This document shows, piece after piece, positions 1 to 11,800 of a DNA stretch of 64,000 nucleotides. This DNA is from Macrostomum lignano (lineage: Eukaryota). The stretch's first letter is position 1. Each line of letters opens with the position of its first letter. The notes under the pieces are model-generated. The model was not told the origin of the DNA and did not search any database. It saw nothing but the letters and a program-made list of their open reading frames with translations. The position numbers were made by a program, and so were the translations under genes. The stretch is from the NCBI GenBank assembly GCA_002269645.1, contig NIVC01000109.1, positions 1 through 64,000 of the forward strand. The letters are read 5' to 3'.

Positions 1-560
1 AAATCCTCTCCGTAGGCTAAAATGTCGTCGACATAGTGCAGCAGGTTCGTGCATCCTGCTAGCATGTATGCTGTTAGTCGACTCATCGTTGCTGGGCTGT
101 TGCTAAGTCCCATCGGCGATCGATTGTACTCGTATACTTGTCCATTGTAGGTTTTGAAAGCCGTGTACTGTCGTGACTCTTTCTCGATTTCAATTTGCCA
201 AAATCCATGACGTAGGTCGAACACCGTGAACAATTTTGCCGTGTTGAGCTTTGCTAGTAGTTCGGAGATCTTCGGTAGGCTTTGCTGATCCGTCGGTATG
301 TACTTGTTCAACAGTCTGAAGTCGCATACGAGTCGTCTTTCGTTTGTCTCCTTCTTCTGTACCAGTAGGCACGGTGAGGAGTAAGCCGAAATAGCTTTGC
401 TGATGATGCCGTGCTTTAGCATTTTATCGATGATTTCGTCAAAGTGTTGTTGCAGATGCTTGGCGATCGGGTACGGCTTGCACTGAATTGGTTCCGTGTG
501 CGGCAGAAGTTTGATTTCCTGTTTGATGTCCTTGGCTCGTCCGATGTCGTAATCATGATG
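1..560 (-). other. Reverse transcriptase domain (partial)
   Basis: PIQCKPYPI, SAYSSPCLLVQKK, RLVCDFRLLNK, TVFDLRHGFWQI, TAFKT, PMGLSNSPATM, YVDD (24-35). Confidence 0.96.
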
Positions 561-3500
561 GCAGAAGGCTTCGTTGTACTTCCACAACAGCTGTCGAACT
601 TTCCTCTTTTGCTGTTCCGTAATCGGGCTGTCATCCAAATTGATCTTCTTTTGAAATTCTTCCTCTGTTAGTCGTGGAGTCGCTTGTTCAATCAGCATAA
701 CCGATGCTTGGGTGTTGAGATGACCGATGCACATTCCTTGTCGTAGATGAACCGTTTCTGTGTTCGGGTTGAAGATTTGTACTGGCAGTTGCTTATCCTT
801 TGCAACCAGCACTAGTGCCGTAGGCATCATGATTTGATGTTTTGCCGTGACTCTCCTGTGTGGATCAAATATCATTGCTTCATCTGCCGCGCTGGTCGTT
901 TTCGCTCTGACCCAGCATGCGCTTTCAGGCTGGATAATGACATCTTGCTGCAGAGTTACTTTCGGTAGTACTCGAATCTGGTTGATCAGCGGTTGCTCCA
1001 CCGTGTCGATCCTAAACGTTTGCTTGTTGAAGTCGAAGGTCAATGGTAGTTGAAGCTGCTTGAACGTGTCGATTCCAACGATGACGTCTTGGTTTGGTAG
1101 TCTGTCGATGATGTACGTCGGGACCGTCAGCTGTTTATTAGCAATTTTCAAGTCGATATCTGCTTTTCCTAGGATGTTGAGTGAATGTCCTCCTGCTCCT
1201 GCAACTGCGATTGCTGCTGGTCGTACCGCGAGTCGTAGCTTGTTGCATAATTGTTGCGAGATGACTGTGATCGAGCTGCCTGAATCCAGTAGTGCTCGAC
1301 ATGGCAAGTTGTTGACAATGACCTGAGCCATTGCTTTGCCAATCTCGGCGTGTAGCGTACAGACGTAGTTTTCCGGCCATTTTGGCTCGTGCTGTTCTGC
1401 TTGATAGTTGGGTGGTTGTATCCTTGGTGCCGTTGGTGTTGTCGGAATCGATGGATATAGCCGCGTTGCTAGTGTCGGTTGCCCTTGAACCTCACAATGT
1501 GCAGTTTCTGTTAGTTCTAAACTGTTGTCGCTTTCCGTTGTCGTTCTTTGCATTATGGCATTCACTGTCTTCTTAGCTCTTGGACAAGTTTGACTGAAGC
1601 ACCGTACGATCGATGAAATGATGAAGATTGCCGTGACAATCCACACAATGCAAGCACCGTAGAAGATGAATCCTTGATAGAGACTGCCTCTTCCATTGAG
1701 CAGCTCCCAGAAGCTATTTGTCCAAAATGATTTGATGGCGCTGTCCATTGAAACAAGGACGGGAAATCTTCCTGTCCCGGTTCCTTTGTCCTTTCTTGTG
1801 AACAGCTGGTGAATCATCTTGCGTTGGGTGATGAACGCTTGCAAGAAGTCGTTGATCGTCCATCCTGGTGTTATCTCGTCAAGTTGGATATCGGCGAATG
1901 GCGTATACTTCGTTCTGTTGAATCGGATTTTCAAATCCTCCATGTCGTAGTTTTCGTCGACGATTACTTCCGGTTCTGTGACGTTTGCTGTCGTTCCAGT
2001 TGTTTTGATGACGTGTAGTGCATTGTCCAGTTGATAGTAGTTTACTGCCGTGGTGCAAGGTCTCGGTATTGCGGTGCCAACGATGATGTTGTGTACCGTG
2101 TCCAAGAATCCCTGAATTCGTTTTCCTTCGTAGAACGCTTCAATCCTTGGCTTATCGTAGCAGGTTGTTGACGTGTTTGACGGCAAGATGTTAAAGTGCT
2201 GTATCGGCGTGCACTTGTATATCAACAGATGCTCGTATATTGGAACTGCCAAAACGTTCGTCATTCCGGTGATTTTACGAAAAGTCATCGTAGGGTTGAC
2301 ATAGTAGTTTTGTCTGGCATAATTTAAGTTGATTGCGTGCATTTTGCAAGTTAGCTGGACCAGTGTTCGATGCAAGTGGTTTAACTGGTTGTGTAGATTG
2401 TGATCCAAAGCCGTTATCTTTGCTGACAACAGCCGGTTTGACACCAGTTTGGGACGTTCGATGTCACGTCGTCTTCTATTCTGTTTTTCTTGTTGCTGAT
2501 ACGTTCCATTGATGATTGCCAAGAAGGTTTGTTTGTCTTCATCCTTTACGTAGACTGGTATCTCTTGTTCCGAGATGAATAGTGTCTTGTCTGTATCCTT
2601 GCATTTCAGTTTTTGCTCGACTGGTTTCTTTTGAAACGTCAGTGCCAAGTCTCCTGACTTTGCCAAAAACGTATTTGACAGTAGTCCTCCTTCAACTGTG
2701 TGATACTTTTGAAGCTTGCAGTCAATTTCCGGCTCAACTTCCCACGCGAAGAAGTATTGTCGTGATTTGTACGGTTCCTCATAGTGTGATTGTGCTCTGT
2801 GCTCAATCTGCCATCGATAGTCTTGATGATATGTTGGACTCAGTGGTAGACTGTGTAGTTCTTCCTTCCGTAGAATCGGCGTTGGACACCATCCTTCACT
2901 GTATCGACATTCGCTTAGTTGCAGCTGTAACGATTCCATTTTCTCGTACGGATTGTAGTAGAATGGAATATTTCTGATCAAGTAGCTGTTGCGTGCCATA
3001 TATTCTTTCCATTTTCCGAAGAAGTGAATATATCGACCGTTGGCTGAATTCTTTGTTCTGAACAGCTGTGCGTTGCCGACCTTCTCATCTGGTTCCAGTT
3101 CACCATCCTTTGAAAATAGTGTTTGATTCCATTGTAGGCATTCCGCGTGCGACACATGTAGCTCATGTTGTTTAAATCGGATCCGGTTCCATTGTCCGCG
3201 CCAAACTTTTTCCACCAGGTGCTTGTCTCTGAAGCATACTATCCCGTGTTGTCGATGCTTCTTGATGTTAGCCTTGTAGAGATCGAGTGTAATCTTCTTT
3301 GGTTTTGTCTGGTTTGTCTTGAAGTAACTGCATTTGATGTCGGTTGGTATCTTGTAGATCATCGGTTGGATATGCGCATCCGTTGGACAAATCATTGGCT
3401 TTTCCGTTGCCGTTGCTTTGGCGACTACTGCTATCAGTAGTATCACGATGATCCAGAATAGCCAGTTTTTCCACTTCTTGGATTTTGCCGTTGTCCTTGC

Positions 3501-5318
3501 TGGCATTGGCTGCGATCGCCATTCGTTATCTTCCATGTCCGCATCATATTCTTTCGGTTGTTCCATTGGCTGATCCAGGCGGAAGGCTTCTGATTCGCTT
3601 TGCTTTTTGGTTATTTCATTATCTTCGTCTGCGGCTTCTTCCGATGTTTCCGTTGTTTCACTCCATTGCGTTTGGTATCTTTTCTCTGTCTTGTAGTCGA
3701 CCGTTTGAATATAGGCTTCACCATTTCGTTTGTATCGGATCTCGTAGCATTCGTCGCTGTCGGAACTCGGCTTTTCTTTCACCTGTTCTTTTTCCATTTC
3801 TTCATCTTTCCATTGTATTTCGTAGCCTTGATCGCTGTCGGAACTTAGATTCTCCGCTCTCGGTTCTTCCTGCATTCCTCTTTCGGCTTGGTAGTCGTTC
3901 GTGTCATCACGCACCTCGCAGTCGTGGTCGTTGCCGTAACTTCTACATTCTTCTTCTTCTTTCATTTCTTTGTCTTTCATGCTCGTTTTGTCGTCATCCA
4001 CTGTTGTCGATTCATAGTTGTTTTCTTCGCCGGTTTTCATCTTTTCTTCGTTGCCGATGTCGCTCTCCGCCTCCTCCCTTGTCTTGTGATTTACTTTCTT
4101 CCTGTTTTCTCTGCTGTCTCCGGTGGTCTCTTTTAATTTGATCATTTCGGTTTCATTCGTCTCTTCTGTGTTGTCAGTGTTGTCCTCGTGCGTCGTCTTC
4201 TTTTCGATCAAGCTGATGTCAAGTTCCGGGACTGTGAAGTCCATTTCCAAGTCGTCAATTGTGAACACTTGCTGTTCTTGCTGTTCATTTTCCGGTGTGT
4301 ACGTGATGGCATTCGCGTATCGTGGCATTGCTTGCGTCGGCTGTCTTTGTGTGTATCTGACGTTGCGTGGCCTGTAGCCATTACTTCTGAAGCGGCCTTC
4401 GTTTCCGAAGCGGCCATCATTTCCGGAGCGGTCATTATTTCCGAAGCGTCTATCATTTCCGAAGCGTCTCATTCCTTGTTGTTGGCGATTTTGATAGTGC
4501 TGCCATGGTTTCTGCGGCTTCTGATTGTTGAATATCTGTCGCGGCTTGTCGTATCTTGTTGACCAATGAGGACAATTAATCTGATAATGTCCTTCTTGTC
4601 CGCAGTAGTAACATCTGGCTGAGGCTTGTTCATTTCGTCTTTTTTGTTCGGCGATAGCAGCTGTCTGGTGCTGCATTAACTTGTTTAGTTGCTGCGTCAG
4701 TTTCTGCACTTCATTGTTGCCTGTCGTCATTAATGGGGCACTGGCTTCCCATTGCATTCCGCAACGCAAAAGGTCTTCTTCGGTTTCGATATTTTCACGC
4801 AAAAGTCTATCCCGAAGTGACGGCTGTGCGTTGTTTATTACGTGCAGGATGAGGTTTTGTTCACGATCCATCAATCGTTGTCTTTCTCTGGCGGCCAATT
4901 CTGCCGCTCCCAGTGGTGGTTGGTCCGCAGCTTGCAGCGGTGGCTGATGCAGTGCCTTAATTATCTGGCGGATATCGTCCACAAAGGCGAGGAAGGATTC
5001 TGTTGCTTGCATCCTTCTGTTATGCAACTTGTGCAGCAGCACTGATCTGTTTGTGCCGCAACGGTTGAAATGCGCGCGCAGTTGAATGATTAGTGCTGGA
5101 TAATTTTGCTGTGTTGCCGCATCCAGCTTGCCGTAAATTTCTCGCGCAGTACCTTGGAGAAGAGGTGGCAGCAGCTGTGCCTTCTCTGGATTTTGTAGGT
5201 TGTATTCCCTACATACCAGGTCAAAATGGTCGACAAATGTGTTAAAATCTTTCTCCATCGAGAAAGTACCGACCGTTTCTTTGATGTCTCTGTGTACCGT
5301 TGGATTGCGCCGCGCCAT
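1..5318 (-). CDS. Gag-Env-Pro-RT polyprotein, 3'-partial, at least 1772 aa
   Basis: Manual translation found no stop between the in-frame TGA at 5343-5345 and position 1. First ATG at 5318 (MARRNPTVHRDIKETVGTFSMEKDFNTFVDHFDLVCREYNL...). Not listed in the ORF track. Confidence 0.93.
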   Translation of the reverse strand, partial: MARRNPTVHRDIKETVGTFSMEKDFNTFVDHFDLVCREYNLQNPEKAQLLPPLLQGTAREIYGKLDAATQQNYPALIIQLRAHFNRCGTNRSVLLHKLHNRRMQATESFLAFVDDIRQIIKALHQPPLQAADQPPLGAAELAARERQRLMDREQNLILHVINNAQPSLRDRLLRENIETEEDLLRCGMQWEASAPLMTTGNNEVQKLTQQLNKLMQHQTAAIAEQKRRNEQASARCYYCGQEGHYQINCPHWSTRYDKPRQIFNNQKPQKPWQHYQNRQQQGMRRFGNDRRFGNNDRSGNDGRFGNEGRFRSNGYRPRNVRYTQRQPTQAMPRYANAITYTPENEQQEQQVFTIDDLEMDFTVPELDISLIEKKTTHEDNTDNTEETNETEMIKLKETTGDSRENRKKVNHKTREEAESDIGNEEKMKTGEENNYESTTVDDDKTSMKDKEMKEEEECRSYGNDHDCEVRDDTNDYQAERGMQEEPRAENLSSDSDQGYEIQWKDEEMEKEQVKEKPSSDSDECYEIRYKRNGEAYIQTVDYKTEKRYQTQWSETTETSEEAADEDNEITKKQSESEAFRLDQPMEQPKEYDADMEDNEWRSQPMPARTTAKSKKWKNWLFWIIVILLIAVVAKATATEKPMICPTDAHIQPMIYKIPTDIKCSYFKTNQTKPKKITLDLYKANIKKHRQHGIVCFRDKHLVEKVWRGQWNRIRFKQHELHVSHAECLQWNQTLFSKDGELEPDEKVGNAQLFRTKNSANGRYIHFFGKWKEYMARNSYLIRNIPFYYNPYEKMESLQLQLSECRYSEGWCPTPILRKEELHSLPLSPTYHQDYRWQIEHRAQSHYEEPYKSRQYFFAWEVEPEIDCKLQKYHTVEGGLLSNTFLAKSGDLALTFQKKPVEQKLKCKDTDKTLFISEQEIPVYVKDEDKQTFLAIINGTYQQQEKQNRRRRDIERPKLVSNRLLSAKITALDHNLHNQLNHLHRTLVQLTCKMHAINLNYARQNYYVNPTMTFRKITGMTNVLAVPIYEHLLIYKCTPIQHFNILPSNTSTTCYDKPRIEAFYEGKRIQGFLDTVHNIIVGTAIPRPCTTAVNYYQLDNALHVIKTTGTTANVTEPEVIVDENYDMEDLKIRFNRTKYTPFADIQLDEITPGWTINDFLQAFITQRKMIHQLFTRKDKGTGTGRFPVLVSMDSAIKSFWTNSFWELLNGRGSLYQGFIFYGACIVWIVTAIFIISSIVRCFSQTCPRAKKTVNAIMQRTTTESDNSLELTETAHCEVQGQPTLATRLYPSIPTTPTAPRIQPPNYQAEQHEPKWPENYVCTLHAEIGKAMAQVIVNNLPCRALLDSGSSITVISQQLCNKLRLAVRPAAIAVAGAGGHSLNILGKADIDLKIANKQLTVPTYIIDRLPNQDVIVGIDTFKQLQLPLTFDFNKQTFRIDTVEQPLINQIRVLPKVTLQQDVIIQPESACWVRAKTTSAADEAMIFDPHRRVTAKHQIMMPTALVLVAKDKQLPVQIFNPNTETVHLRQGMCIGHLNTQASVMLIEQATPRLTEEEFQKKINLDDSPITEQQKRKVRQLLWKYNEAFCHHDYDIGRAKDIKQEIKLLPHTEPIQCKPYPIAKHLQQHFDEIIDKMLKHGIISKAISAYSSPCLLVQKKETNERRLVCDFRLLNKYIPTDQQSLPKISELLAKLNTAKLFTVFDLRHGFWQIEIEKESRQYTAFKTYNGQVYEYNRSPMGLSNSPATMSRLTAYMLAGCTNLLHYVDDILAYGED
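1020..1340 (-). other. Retropepsin-type aspartic protease domain
   Basis: AQVIVNNLPCRALLDSGSSITVIS (DSG at 1278-1286), GAGGHSLNILG flap-like segment, and DVIVGIDTF. Confidence 0.9.
1570..3479 (-). other. Env domain: signal peptide, gB-like class III fusion ectodomain, transmembrane helix
   Basis: Signal KKWKNWLFWIIVILLIAVVAKA (about 3414-3479); 12 ectodomain Cys; 6 N-x-S/T sequons; RRRR at 2466-2477; CYDKP at 2148-2162; TM FIFYGACIVWIVTAIFIISSIV at 1605-1670. Confidence 0.85.
4330..5318 (-). other. Gag domain (capsid-like region, CCHC zinc knuckle, R/G/N-rich tail)
   Basis: CYYCGQEGHYQINC at 4572-4613 fits CX2CX4HX4C; followed by RRFGNDRRFGNNDRSGNDGRFGNEGRF repeats. Confidence 0.88.
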
Positions 5319-6010
5319 TTGTTGATAGGGTAGAACGGTAGTTCAAGATCTGGATCGATTTGTAACGGATCGTCCAGTGTGGTGTTTGCCTCGGAATAAA
5401 CCTCGACTGTAACGAATTGCCTTGTGGTGTCGATTTGTTATTCGCTGGCCTCGGATGCGGTGTGGCTTGCTGCCACTGGTTGTCCTCAAATGAACTTGTT
5501 CTGTTCGCTTGCTGATTTCGCACTTATGCGGCGTCCCGCAAAGTGTATCTTCAAGTTGAAGTGGACTTGTCTTCTTGCTTTGCAAAGTCTTTCTTCTCTT
5601 CTTTGACTCTCTCTCTTTTGTCAATTAACTCTGCTCTCCACGAAGTTTCAATTAATTTCGGTTTTGTTTTAGTTTTTGTGCCGGCAAAATGTTTCAGTTA
5701 TTTTTTGTTTGTTTGCGTCGACGATTCTTTTTATTTTTGGTTTGTTTTCAGTGTACCGACGAAGTTAATTTCGGTTTTGTTTTAAACTCACACTTGCTCG
5801 AGCTCGTCAAAACAAAATTTTAACACGCGTGCTCAAACTGTACTCAAATTTGACAGGTGCTCAAACCTGTACACCAAATTTTACTCGAGTTTCAAAACGT
5901 AACGGACTTAAAAAGTGTTAACTCTAACACGTGCGCGCAAAATTAATGAAGTCGCTCTGTCGTCACTTTACAATAGCTTGGCCAGGCTATTGCTCAAGGT
6001 TTGAGTAGTG

Positions 6011-6030
6011 CCGAGAGGGCGAGATCACCA
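6011..6030 (-). promoter_or_regulatory. Putative primer-binding site TGGTGATCTCGCCCTCTCGG
   Basis: Canonical LTR-CA + 2 nt + TGG arrangement. Cognate tRNA not identified. Confidence 0.65.
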
Positions 6031-6032
6031 AT

Positions 6033-6957
6033 TGATGTGTTCCTTATTACCCGACTTTCGATAATCAAGGAACAATCACTTCTAGCTCAACAGCTAGGCA
6101 ACCCAGTAAGTCAAACGAAGGTATTCAATTACCTTTAATCCGGATTTGAATTTCTTGAGTAGTTCTCGCTAGGAACTTGTCAGTAGATCTCGTAGATCAG
6201 GCGCCTTGATTCTTCAGTTGCTCTGGTCCTGGTTCCTCTTGTACTTCCGATAAGTTCTTCCGGCCGGTATCTTCCGTCAGGACCAATCAGAGGCCTCGTA
6301 GCAACAATGGGTACCCTGCGCCAAACTGCGGTCTAAATTAAGCCTCCTTCTTCTAGCAGTGCCTCTATGCACTCTAGGTATAGCTCCGGAAACCACTGAT
6401 AGTCCTCTAAGATCTATCAGGGGCAGTCCTTCTGGAGACTGCAACCAATGGAGTCTAAACAGACTCAAGAGTCTCAACAGACTCAATTAGACTCAAGTCT
6501 CAATAGACTTGAGCGAGACGTCTCTAACACAACGGGCGCAAATAAGGAAGGCTTACCGCAACAACTCGACCGAGTCTCGATTGACTTGGTAGATCAGGAA
6601 GTCCTCCTAAGGCTTCCTCTTCGGAGCGCTCCTCTTCCGTGGGGAGAATGGCTCCGGTACCGCTTCAGATCGCTTGTATTTATAGACAAGTTTTTGATCC
6701 AAAATAGTATCATGACAATTCACGTGTTGCGCTAAAAGGGGAAAATGGCTCATGGCGTATTATTCTGGTAACATCTTTTTCTGGTAGCGTGATTCATTCA
6801 AAGCTTAGGCGCACATGCGTGTACTTACTTACTTATAGTAGTATTATACGATTATCTTCTTTTTTCCTTTTTTAACGGGAGGTAGAACACTCTACAGTTG
6901 TACGTAATCCTTCATATTCTTGTAACAATAACAACGATAATCAACGATATTACATCA
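6033..6957 (-). repeat. 5' LTR (925 bp) of the env-bearing Gypsy element
   Basis: 6-bp terminal inverted repeat TGATGT/ACATCA; ends 2 nt before the TGG of the PBS; internal TATAAATA. The partner LTR is outside the window, so the boundaries are not confirmed by pairing. Confidence 0.75.
6677..6684 (-). promoter_or_regulatory. Putative LTR TATA box (TATAAATA)
   Basis: Motif lies inside the LTR in the element's sense orientation. Confidence 0.5.
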
Positions 6958-7679
6958 GGAGAAACCGAACACAGTTCCGTGCGAGCGCAGGACGAGTTGA
7001 TTTTTGCTTTTAATTTTCTTTTTCAATTTCCAATCGGGAAAAAGTTGAACAACGGGGGGGGGGGAACGCAGCGGAGAAATACAAGAACTCAGAGACCAGA
7101 AGAGAACAGGGGTTGAAAATAAACCCTCGAAGACGCCACGCACAGATGATGGCGAGTAAAGTCCTGTTATGAATCTTGCAACCACCGAGCGCACACTGCT
7201 TCAAAATAACAAGATTTCCGCAGTCTAAATAGTAATTAATAGCTAGGGTTGCTACTCGCGTATAAGTAGTGTGTTTATTACTATGTAATTATTAAATATG
7301 GGGACAAAGGGCTGAGAAAGATTGCTGGTAAAATTTCAAAATATTAGTTTTATAACTTCATTAAGAGAAACGAAGATAAATTATGTACAAATTACTTAAT
7401 TTATAATTGATAAATCATTCTAGTTAACCGCTAGAACAGGTGCCGGGCGTCTTAAAAATATAGGTGCATTTTTTTATTATTATTTTGCATATTACGGGCT
7501 GAATAGGGTCAGAGGTCAAGCTAAAAATACAGCATGTTGCTGGGTTTACCGGGTACGGCTGAAAGGACACCAAAGTATGACGCAAGTGAAACTGCTGCTC
7601 ATTGGGAAGCTGTGCATAAAAATACAAATGAGGGGCTGTTCAGAAAGTAAGGATGATGATTAAATAAGTTGACGTACGA

Positions 7680-8806: not shown

Positions 8807-11800
8807 TCACACTAGCGGCAGTCGCGGCTTAACCAAGCCTCCGTCGCCCTCCGACACGAACCGTTTCCGACCCTTAGTGGGCATCTCCTGCTGCAGGCGA
8901 GCGCTGAGAAAGCCCACATGGCCGGCGTGCTGGCAGAATCGCTCCAGCAGCAGGTAGGCGTTCGGCACGTCCAGCTGAATGTCCGGGATGTCGGCATACA
9001 CCCGGCGAAGGCCCTTCTCCAGCTGGTCAACGGTGAGCAGCACCGACTCGGACAGGGCGGCGATGAGGCGACAGACCCGCTGGCACACCTCCATGGTGCT
9101 GCGCTCGATCACCATGACAACGGCTTGGTAGACCAACTCGTGATGGAAGTGAGGCGCCTCCAGCTCCTTGACGCAGCGGGCGGCTTCGTCAACGTCGTTG
9201 CTGGACAGAAATTCGTCCAGCAGCAGCTTCATCTTCTTCACCAGGTGCTTGGTGGGACGGGCCAGGCCGTGGCCGGAAACGCCCCACACCTGAGGATGGG
9301 GTAGGGGTTCGTCAGGGGCGATTCTCGAGGTAGGGTGGAGAGAGTCAGGGGCGATTCTCTGGATAGGGTGGAGAGAGTCAGGGGCGATTCTCTGGATAAG
9401 GTGGGGAGAGTCCGTGGCGATTCTTAGAGAGCGATTCTCTGGATAGGGTGGGGAGAGTCAGGGGCGATTCTCTGGATAAGGTGGGGAGAGTCAGGGGCGA
9501 TTCTCTGGATAAGGTGGGGAGAGTCAGGGGCGATTCTCTGGATAAGGTGGGGAGAGTCCGTGGCGATTCTTAGAGAGCGATTCTCTGGATAGGGTGGGGA
9601 GAGTCAGGGGCGATTCTCTGGATAAGGTGGGGAGAGTCAGGGGCGATTCTCTGGATAAGGTGGGGAGAGTCCGTGGCGATTCTTAGAGAGCGATTCTCTG
9701 GATAGGGTGGGGAGAGTCAGGGGCGATTCTCTGGATAAGGTGGGGAGAATCCGTGGCGATTCTTAGAGAGCGATTCTCTGGATAAGGTGGGGAGAGTCAG
9801 GGGCGATTCTCTAGGTAGGGTGAGGAGAGTCAGAGGCGATTCTCTAGGTAGGGTGGGGAGAGTCAGGGGCGATTCTTAGAGAGCGATTCTCTGGATAAGG
9901 TGGGGAGAGTCAGGGGCGATTCTCTGGATAAGGTGGGGAGAGTCCGTGGCGATTCTTAGAGAGCGATTCTCTGGATAGGGTGGGGAGAGTCAGGGGCGAT
10001 TCTCTGGATAAGGTGGGGAGAATCCGTGGCGATTCTTAGAGAGCGATTCTCTGGATAAGGTGGGGAGAGTCAGGGGCGATTCTTTGGATAAGGTGGGGAG
10101 AATCCGTGGCGATTCTTAGAGAGCAATTCTCTGGATAGGGTGGGGAGAGTCAGGGGCGATTCTCTGTGTAAGGTGGAGAGTCAGGAGCGATTCTCTGGGT
10201 AGGGTGGAGCGATTCAGGGGCGATTCTTTAGGTAGGGTGGGGAGTCAGTGATGATTTGATAGAATTTAGTCAGGAACAAGTGAGGGCCTATTCAAACAAC
10301 AACAACAACAAACAACAAAGTACACTGGATAGTCTCTAGTGTCACAAGGACAAACAAATTCAAACAAGGACATATAGAGGTCAAGCCTCACCTTATCCAG
10401 ACAGTACATGCTATGTGTCATAGTGAGCAGGTTCTCAGCCTTGGCCAGAGCTTTCATAGTGTGGCCACTATCAACCCGGCCCTTGTAGGTGGCCACGAAC
10501 TTGGGCGGCAGCAGGTCATCAGCGATGGCCCTGGCGATGAACTTTCCAATCATGTCGGGCGCGTCCGGCAGGTCGATGGTTAAATCGTCGACCTCCTTGA
10601 GCAAGAGGTCGAATCCGTGGACGAGCTCTTCGCTGGAGACGGCCGGGCCGACCAAGCTGCCCAACAGCTGGGAGGTGAGCTCCCGCTGCAGAGCGTTGCG
10701 CTGCACACTGGCACTGATGGCCAGGTAGGGTATGCGCTCCCTGTGCTGCGGGTTGGTGCGCAGGTCCCGCAGCTGCTGGATCACCTGCGAAGCGAGTTGA
10801 AGAGGCATATCGAATCAGCTTACTTATAGTAGAGTTTCAAAATTTAGATGCCATTTTTGTGAAATCTAGATGCCGCTTTTGAGAGATCTAGATGCCATTT
10901 TTTGAGAGATCTAGATGCCATTTTTTGAGAGATCTAGATGTCATTTTTTGAGAGATCTTGATGCCTTTTTTGAAAGATCTAGATGTCATTTTTGAGAGAT
11001 CTAGATGCCATTTTTTGAGAGATCTAGATGCCATTATTGAGAGATCTAGATGCCATTTTTGAGAAATCTAGATGTCATTTTTGAGAGATCTAGATGCCAT
11101 TTTTGAGAGATCTAGATGCCGCTTTTGAGAGATCTGGATGTCATTTTTGAGAGATCTAGATGCTACTTTTGAGAGATTTAGATGCTACGTTTGAGAGATC
11201 TAGATGCCATTTTTGAGAGATCTAGATGTCATTTTTGAGAGATCTAGATGCCATTTTTGAGAGATCTAGATGCCATTTTTGAGAGATCTAGATGTCATTT
11301 TTGAGAGATCTAGATGCCATTATTGAGAGATCTAGATGCCATTTTTGAGAGATCTAGATGCCATTATTGAGAGATCTAGATGCCATTTTTTCAGAGATCT
11401 AGATGTCATTTTTGAGAGATCTAGATGCTACTTTTGAGAGATTTAGATGCCATTTTTTCAGAGATCTAGATGTCATTTTTGAGAGATCTAGATGCTACGT
11501 TTGAGAGATTTAGATGCCATTTTTTCAGAGATCTAGATGCCATTTTTGAGAGATCTAGATTCCATTTTTGAAAAATCTAGATGCTTTTTCGAGAGATCTA
11601 GATGCGATTTTTTCAGATTTAGTTGTCATTTTTGGGAGATTCAGATGCAATTTTGAGAAAATCTGGAACAACTCGATGCTTATCTAGACGTAAAGTAAAA
11701 AATAAAAAACACACAAACGTGAAGATTTCATACCTCTTTAACCTGGCCGTGCTCAAAGTACTCCTTAACCAGCGCAGTGAACTGCTCCTCAAACTGCTCC

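Follow-up and report, generated by a model that had tools for sequence, protein, structure and literature searches.

Errantiviruses of Nematoda, Bryozoa and Platyhelminthes with an envelope protein (ENV) of the herpes simplex virus glycoprotein B (HSV/gB) type have been described with the gene order GAG-ENV-POL (Chary and Hayashi, eLife 2026, PMC13524379); the preprint version agrees on this arrangement, and the main text credits Sacco et al. 2022 (J Gen Virol 103, doi 10.1099/jgv.0.001739) with the placement of ENV before POL in nematode metaviruses. Among the listed elements is Platyhelminthes_Rhabditophora_Mlig_errantivirus_2, with long terminal repeats (LTRs) at 0-863 and 9727-10591, a gB-type ENV, 16 copies, and a primer-binding site (PBS) at 865-877 that corresponds to GCGAGATCACCA on the other strand (PMC13524379). 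The DNA analysed here, hereafter the window, is a stretch of 64,000 nucleotides of Macrostomum lignano (contig NIVC01000109.1 of assembly GCA_002269645.1, positions 1 to 64,000), and on its minus strand, cut off by the contig end, lies an element of the same type. It is likely to be a Ty3/gypsy element with LTRs and a GAG-ENV-POL order that has been amplified recently, and in which a class III fusogen is made as part of one polyprotein; the identity and architecture of the element, taken by themselves, are hardly open to doubt.

The family of the window element has in common with the listed description of Mlig_errantivirus_2 an LTR of 864 nt, a gap of 2 nt, the same PBS of 12 nt and, in its short-form copies of 10.5-10.6 kb, the length class; the family's 11.67-kb form, with two RING open reading frames (ORFs), exceeds the listed length. 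The two families are very probably the same, matched by the listed description and not by sequence; a six-residue env motif had no match in seven supplements of PMC13524379. With the GAG-ENV-POL errantiviruses of that paper's main text the element shares a Ty3/gypsy pol, env between gag and pol, a gB-type env flanked by a signal peptide and a transmembrane (TM) segment, and multiple copies. A preliminary description of the window had suggested that this architecture might be undescribed, which cannot be upheld: the gene order has certainly been published already (PMC13524379), the single frame very probably so, and single Gag-Env-Pol proteins are present in public databases. With the headline order published and the family very probably catalogued, the element is not a discovery; it is a good object of study, being young, multicopy and apparently well represented in public runs. 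The terms polyprotein, fused, single ORF and frameshift are absent from the main text of PMC13524379, as distinct from its figures and repository, and the same main text was found to contain no mention of RING or splicing, nor of late domains, PTAP, YPx(L/I), PPxY, budding, CUG or the endosomal sorting complex required for transport (ESCRT) in these elements. A wider literature search, with Sacco et al. 2022 outside its scope, likewise found no late-domain motifs, CUG start or RING ORFs, three features of the window element's family that bear specifically on how one membrane-threaded polyprotein builds an enveloped particle.

The minus-strand frame runs without a stop from the ATG at 5318 to the window edge, as had been stated in the preliminary description. 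It reaches position 3 with 1772 residues and holds in order a capsid, a zinc knuckle, an acidic spacer, a signal peptide, a class III fusogen, a TM helix, a protease (PR) and a reverse transcriptase (RT) (Table 1). From base composition alone, a frame of this length would be free of stops with a probability of 1e-41; for the gag-to-env part taken singly the value is 1e-9, and for the part from TM to protease it is 1e-3. The positions given earlier for the CCHC knuckle, the DSG and YVDD motifs and the TM helix agree with those found, and the signal peptide, earlier placed at about 3414-3479, overlaps the first hydrophobic segment, with its core at 3464-3408; the whole translated protein has only two hydrophobic peaks. 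A hydrophobic segment stands at the signal-peptide position in all seven proteins compared, and R-x-K/R-R at the furin-type position in every in-genome family read. A Pfam scan of the frame recovered the protease and the RT and gave a weak match to the knuckle; the glycoprotein region had no match. Capsid profile matches of the Gag were to dArc2, dArc1, PNMA2 and Ty3 Gag (E 7e-8 to 1e-5), the best fold matches of its predicted model were to retroviral capsid (CA) and Arc, weakly (E about 0.01), and the closest solved relative of the RT is Ty3 RT (E 6e-28). Because the window starts at base 1 of the contig and the contig breaks off within the RT, RNase H (RH), integrase (IN) and the 3' LTR were taken from sister copies. 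All of the ten full-length loci, which were selected for long frames, have one ORF each, of 2480-2538 codons, and the three sister proteins scanned have the order zinc finger (ZF)-env-PR-RT-RH-IN in one frame. None of these three has env-like sequence after IN, only the RING ORFs lying between pol and the 3' LTR, so that the same-frame RNase H and integrase, the 3' LTR and the lack of a second env for which the preliminary description had proposed to look beyond the window are seen in sister copies.

The ectodomain of Env yielded an AlphaFold model with a predicted local distance difference test (pLDDT) value of 80.5 (72 sequences). Its best Foldseek matches among solved structures were all herpesvirus gB (E 1e-21, TM-score about 0.4-0.46), and among predicted viral structures they were a rhabdo-like virus (E 6e-24) and a nyamivirus glycoprotein (E 8e-24). 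PF24664 matched Env weakly, and the first match in Atlas (0.90) was a PF24664 cluster, to be read as a lead only given its low recognition score; an Env profile searched against Protein Data Bank (PDB) sequences gave nothing meaningful, and a word search matched only the family's own protein. On its modelled fold, Env is placed among the class III fusogens; its sequence also has a furin-type site. The ratio of nonsynonymous to synonymous substitution rates (dN/dS) is 0.05-0.09 for Env (three comparisons), 0.00-0.01 for RT and 0.05-0.11 for the protease; by these sequence comparisons, Env is under strong purifying selection, and so are the RT and the protease. The synonymous rate is uneven along the element, which points to recombination among subfamilies.

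The Env profile matched 305 cluster representatives. Among the best 150 Env relatives, which are gene predictions and may in some cases hold false introns, eight combine the knuckle, env, PR, RT and IN, in this order, in a single protein, and RT or integrase precedes env in none of the 150. Pfam found pol domains in all eight single-protein relatives and PF24664 upstream of pol in four of them; those named come from a flatworm, Globodera and Caenorhabditis tropicalis. In a midpoint-rooted RT-RH tree of 17 rows, all of them env-bearing relatives, the element groups with the flatworm protein P0004 (100/99), and the Globodera and Caenorhabditis proteins fall elsewhere. These relatives make a flatworm host probable; a COX1 search for typing the host gave one weak, broken match, which was uninformative. 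A search for env-less sisters returned 13 proteins, with no close relative lacking env among them. The knuckle-to-env distance varies in the relatives from <100 to ~500 residues, and for this reason the idea that the capsid shell can be spanned only with a long spacer was dropped.

The element has the paired TG...CA LTRs, short target duplication, PBS and polypurine tract of Metaviridae, together with a PR-RT-RH-IN pol with a Ty3-like RT and a Gag with a Ty3/Arc-type capsid and a CCHC knuckle, with which the fold search agrees weakly. It also has the features of the gB-type GAG-ENV-POL elements, namely env before pol, no env after integrase, and a class III ectodomain between signal peptide and TM. 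It does not belong with Belpaoviridae, since no Bel/Pao Pfam family matched up to E 0.5 and env lies ahead of the protease, nor with Retroviridae, since the gag-pro-pol-env order with a class I Env is not present. With yeast Ty3, also of Metaviridae, the element has in common the PR-RT-RH-IN order, a related RT and a capsid profile match; Ty3 differs in lacking env and in producing its Gag-Pol through a frameshift. The nematode endogenous retroviruses (NERVs), in the abstract of Sacco and colleagues, reportedly have a continuous gag-env-pro-pol ORF, a nyamivirus-like glycoprotein and accessory ORFs. The continuous ORF is found in the window element as well, but in the 17-row tree this element is not monophyletic with the nematode proteins, and its cargo is a RING pair; it may be said to work like a NERV without being classed as one.

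A search of the source genome with the env region gave at least 69 matches, a lower bound with 66 of 272 candidates scored, and the top 12 were at 100% identity. The window copy is 99.97% identical to one sister copy over 6898 nt, and because the flanks differ it is a separate insertion. In ten sister copies the LTR pairs are 99.6-100% identical where compared, and a purine tract precedes the 3' LTR. Six loci measured 11,673-11,675 nt (n=3) or 10,500-10,614 nt (n=3); two of the six share flanks and so are one insertion, and target duplications are of 4 bp at four insertions and 5 bp at one. The near-identical LTR pairs and target duplications indicate a multicopy family that has moved recently. 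The fused gag-env-pol layout is also present in in-genome families at 64% and 26% env identity.

Of the 30 best env loci, 16, among them that of the window, have the knuckle and the protease in a single frame free of stops. Contigs assembled from public runs span the gag-to-env junction with no differences in X1 (3328-5091), X4 (3360-5091) and X17 (3262-4657), and a contig of run X7 spans TM to protease (1184-2192), also with none; in all, contigs of four runs from four studies match the junctions, three of the runs with 0-1 differences. The best-matching runs may share an origin with the assembly and thus not be independent of it, and contig depth in the runs cannot rank regions of the element. 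The preliminary description had raised misassembly, or an env nested in one copy, as the means by which its reading would fall. The assembly does have many single-base indels, but the chance that either accounts for the layout is negligible: it is refuted by the genomic env matches, by several families, and proteins of other animals, in which the layout recurs, and by run contigs that bridge both junctions. As judged from these sequences, the layout is neither an artefact nor a nested insertion.

In five of the 30 assembly copies the Env tail has a gap of one base at a shared position and then runs into a stop, as would be expected if a programmed frameshift or stop split env from pol and the open junction were the variant. 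The gap falls on a base that is polymorphic (A/G) between subfamilies, and in the public runs the A/G substitution was seen while no such indel stood among the rows listed (the runs have seven further indel rows). No slippery heptamer was found in the window's subfamily, and none is common to the families. The gap is a probable consensus error, and programmed separation of env from pol is very improbable.

Two side observations concern the runs. X17, labelled as a different organism (organism B), has 90% of the element's words over window 1-7100 together with substitutions of its own; its source is either an organism closely related to the host or a sample that is mixed. One contig from a DNA run joins window positions 170 and 1828, with 16 other letters between, as a deletion variant that lacks the Env TM, the protease and part of the RT.

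The reading frame probably begins not at the ATG but at a CTG (window 5377), which in all ten full-length loci, including that of the 64% family, lies exactly 20 codons upstream of the ATG and in frame with it. The window copy is the only one of the 11 read in which a one-base indel beside the ATG shifts the 20-codon extension out of frame; since the contigs of all four runs have the extension in frame, this indel is likely an assembly error. The extension is conserved as protein, with seven synonymous differences and one non-synonymous between two subfamilies, and the 1336-nt leader contains no ATG against 23 expected.

Within 19 residues of the linker between TM and protease are packed LYPSI, PTAP and PPNY, motifs whose sequences place them in the retroviral late-domain classes. 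In a set of 34 in-genome loci, whose relatedness makes them non-independent, P(T/S)AP is present in 31, YPx(L/I) in 33 and PPxY in 29; the distant families retain YPx(L/I), and two of three distant proteins have PSAP. A TM and a protease motif are both present in 36 database relatives, two of which are the element family or its nearest relative. One or more late motifs occur in 12 of the 36, compared with a mean of 2.4 in shuffled linkers, and none of 2000 shuffles reaches 12. According to the passage on them in PMC12789967, PTAP and YPXnL late domains sit in the C-terminal p6 peptide of HIV Gag. In the window element the motifs differ in position, following the Env TM and not the nucleocapsid (NC); if they are functional, ESCRT-dependent budding would be tied to an Env-Pol precursor, unlike the Gag-driven budding of retroviruses. 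Likeness to HIV p6, and to the flavivirus polyprotein, is proposed as a functional analogy without a claim of homology.

The preliminary description proposed a flavivirus-like topology for the polyprotein, with a default 1:1:1 stoichiometry of Gag, Env and Pol. The architecture, the single frame and the topology are now backed by sequence, structure prediction and conservation; combined with established cell biology, these make the topology probable, though we still infer it, as we do the cleavages and the equal stoichiometry. Ribosomes would scan the AUG-free leader and initiate at the conserved CUG or the next AUG. The CA-NC part and the spacer would be made in the cytosol until the internal signal peptide opens the translocon, and signal peptidase would free the N-terminus of Env. 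In flaviviruses, the capsid is anchored by an internal signal sequence and released by proteases; here Gag, having no evident matrix domain, may obtain its membrane attachment from the signal anchor, which would stay on it in place of that domain. The Env TM would halt transfer and leave the linker-PR-RT-RH-IN portion hanging on the cytosolic face, where PTAP, YPx(L/I) and PPxY would recruit ESCRT, couple budding to Env and pack Pol without a frameshift. Furin would then cut Env, and the element's own protease would release CA, NC and the enzymes. The resulting particle probably has an envelope and can probably spread from cell to cell. The ESCRT step, proposed from motifs, is possible but somewhat doubtful. 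Much the same caution applies to a fuller proposal for these single-polyprotein elements, in which the budding signal is on the Env-Pol joint instead of Gag and acts while Pol is still tethered to the membrane, Gag is signal-anchored and starts at CUG, and two captured double-RING (E3-ligase-like) genes occupy the place where env normally sits. If the scheme is true, a retroelement would here be assembled by a route that obligatorily links the envelope to budding and to the packaging of Pol.

Several points tell against this polyprotein model. The protease sites were read by eye against a Ty3/gypsy pattern. The remaining 14 of the 30 best env loci are broken, mostly by single-base indels or stops, and none of the four runs is on record as RNA, two being guessed to be so. 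As to budding, 24 of the 36 relatives are without any canonical late motif, from which it would follow that the ESCRT step is not universal among them; YPxL alone is weakly enriched (47 of 2000 shuffles reach 4), LYPSI ends in I where the canonical motif has L, the linker is rich in proline, and the relatives are not independent samples. Equal output of Gag, Env and Pol would be wasteful, and an unseen splice could change the ratio.

This last point leads to the alternative that the single DNA frame is expressed through splicing or early termination, which would set the Gag:Env:Pol ratio and make the full polyprotein one product among several. Capsids need far more Gag than Pol, and P0003, a database gene model of this family, lacks 33 linker residues in a manner that matches a GT-AG stretch at 1495-1397. 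P0003 is, on the other hand, a chimeric model of 3074 aa; with a strict pattern, the ORFs of two subfamilies have no donor match and no pyrimidine-rich acceptor; and the two runs guessed to be RNA list no joint while their contigs cross the junctions unspliced, which counts weakly because contigs drop rare forms. Regulated expression of this kind is unlikely. The GT-AG stretch itself (minus strand, 99 nt) spans all three late motifs, and its 33 residues are exactly those missing from P0003; the run contigs show no such joint.

A second alternative accepts that Env is translocated and conserved, and supposes that budding takes place only into internal membranes, so that the element reinfects the same cell or a syncytium. 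It is consistent with an internal signal anchor that ties Gag to the endoplasmic reticulum from the start, and PMC13524379 treats the mode of transmission as unknown except in Drosophila. Against it, the strong purifying selection that acts on a complete fusogen, furin-type site included, argues that fusion matters; purely internal budding is given a low probability, and the polyprotein model with its cell-to-cell particle is preferred.

In the long copies, pol is followed by two paralogous ORFs, 222 and 210 aa long, that lie ahead of the 3' LTR (sister-copy coordinates L042:1284-2655 and L048:100-1423); in the window copy their position would fall past the contig end. Each has two cysteine-rich RING-like units, which match Pfam RING families mostly below cut-off, and Atlas placed them in generic RING clusters. 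A second family carries both ORFs, at 36-42% identity. The proportions of nonsynonymous and synonymous differences (pN and pS) are 0.15 vs 0.70 for one and 0.24 vs 0.66 for the other, and in many copies the ORFs are broken or lost. A search limited to near lengths found no homologues. The first ORF opens with MGNALS in one family, which we take to be a myristoylation-like start. Clusters of further RING-ORF paralogues at about 26-50% identity on contigs C272, C1405, C4009, C1063, C1064 and C273 may belong either to other elements or to a family of host genes from which the cargo was taken.

Table 1. Parts of the M. lignano element in window coordinates
Feature	Position	Strand	Basis and remarks
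5' LTR, 864 nt, TG...CA	6033..6896	-	866 nt identical to 3' LTR of sister copy; similarity to sister begins at 6896
TATA-like box in LTR, putative promoter	6678..6684	-	sequence only
ATTAAA poly(A)-like signal in LTR	starts 6139	-	sequence only
Primer-binding site TGGTGATCTCGC	6019..6030	-	2 nt past LTR
CTG in strong Kozak context, probable non-AUG start	5375..5377	-	conserved in sister copies
Single Gag-Env-PR-RT open frame	3..5318	-	truncated by contig end; 2498 aa from ATG in intact sister
Gag capsid-like domain, no evident matrix domain	4614..5318	-	profile matches and weak fold matches
CCHC zinc knuckle (nucleocapsid)	4572..4613	-	PF00098, E 8e-4, just under its cut-off
Acidic spacer	3483..4286	-	30% Asp+Glu; dN/dS 0.30-0.58; fast-evolving, frame kept
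Internal signal peptide (predicted)	3408..3482	-	basic n-region, hydrophobic core (3464-3408), A-x-A cleavage pattern
Env ectodomain, class III fusogen (gB / nyamivirus G-like), 578 aa	1674..3407	-	predicted fold and Foldseek
Furin-type site RRRR	2466..2477	-	sequence motif
Env transmembrane helix	1605..1673	-	hydrophobicity (TM 1670-1605)
Late-domain-like motifs in TM-to-protease linker	1404..1460	-	LYPSI 1460-1446, PTAP 1436-1425, PPNY 1415-1404
Aspartic protease	1041..1331	-	PF13650, E 1e-9; DSG 1286-1278
Reverse transcriptase, N-terminal part	3..359	-	PF00078, E 8e-18; YVDD 35-24

For the primer tRNA, one guessed Trp-like variant pattern gave no match. Between the protease and the RT (window 1040-519, minus strand) lies a conserved domain of ~170 aa with dN/dS 0.04-0.05 and no Pfam match; to the eye it has some likeness to a dUTPase-like fold. 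The third env family, that at 26% identity with the fused layout (L055 and L056, on contigs C1189 and C2598), includes a copy with three CCHC knuckles (L055), and on C1189 no RING matches were among the scored candidates. Several copies of the element or RING pairs lie close together, some ~10 kb apart, on contigs C87, C2121, C1130, C669, C3033 and C2447, which suggests tandem arrays. The flanks of sister copies L033, L034, L035 and L037 place several insertions within tandem repeats, and the window itself, from 8800 to 64000, contains many minisatellites (units of ~8-45 nt) and dispersed repeats.

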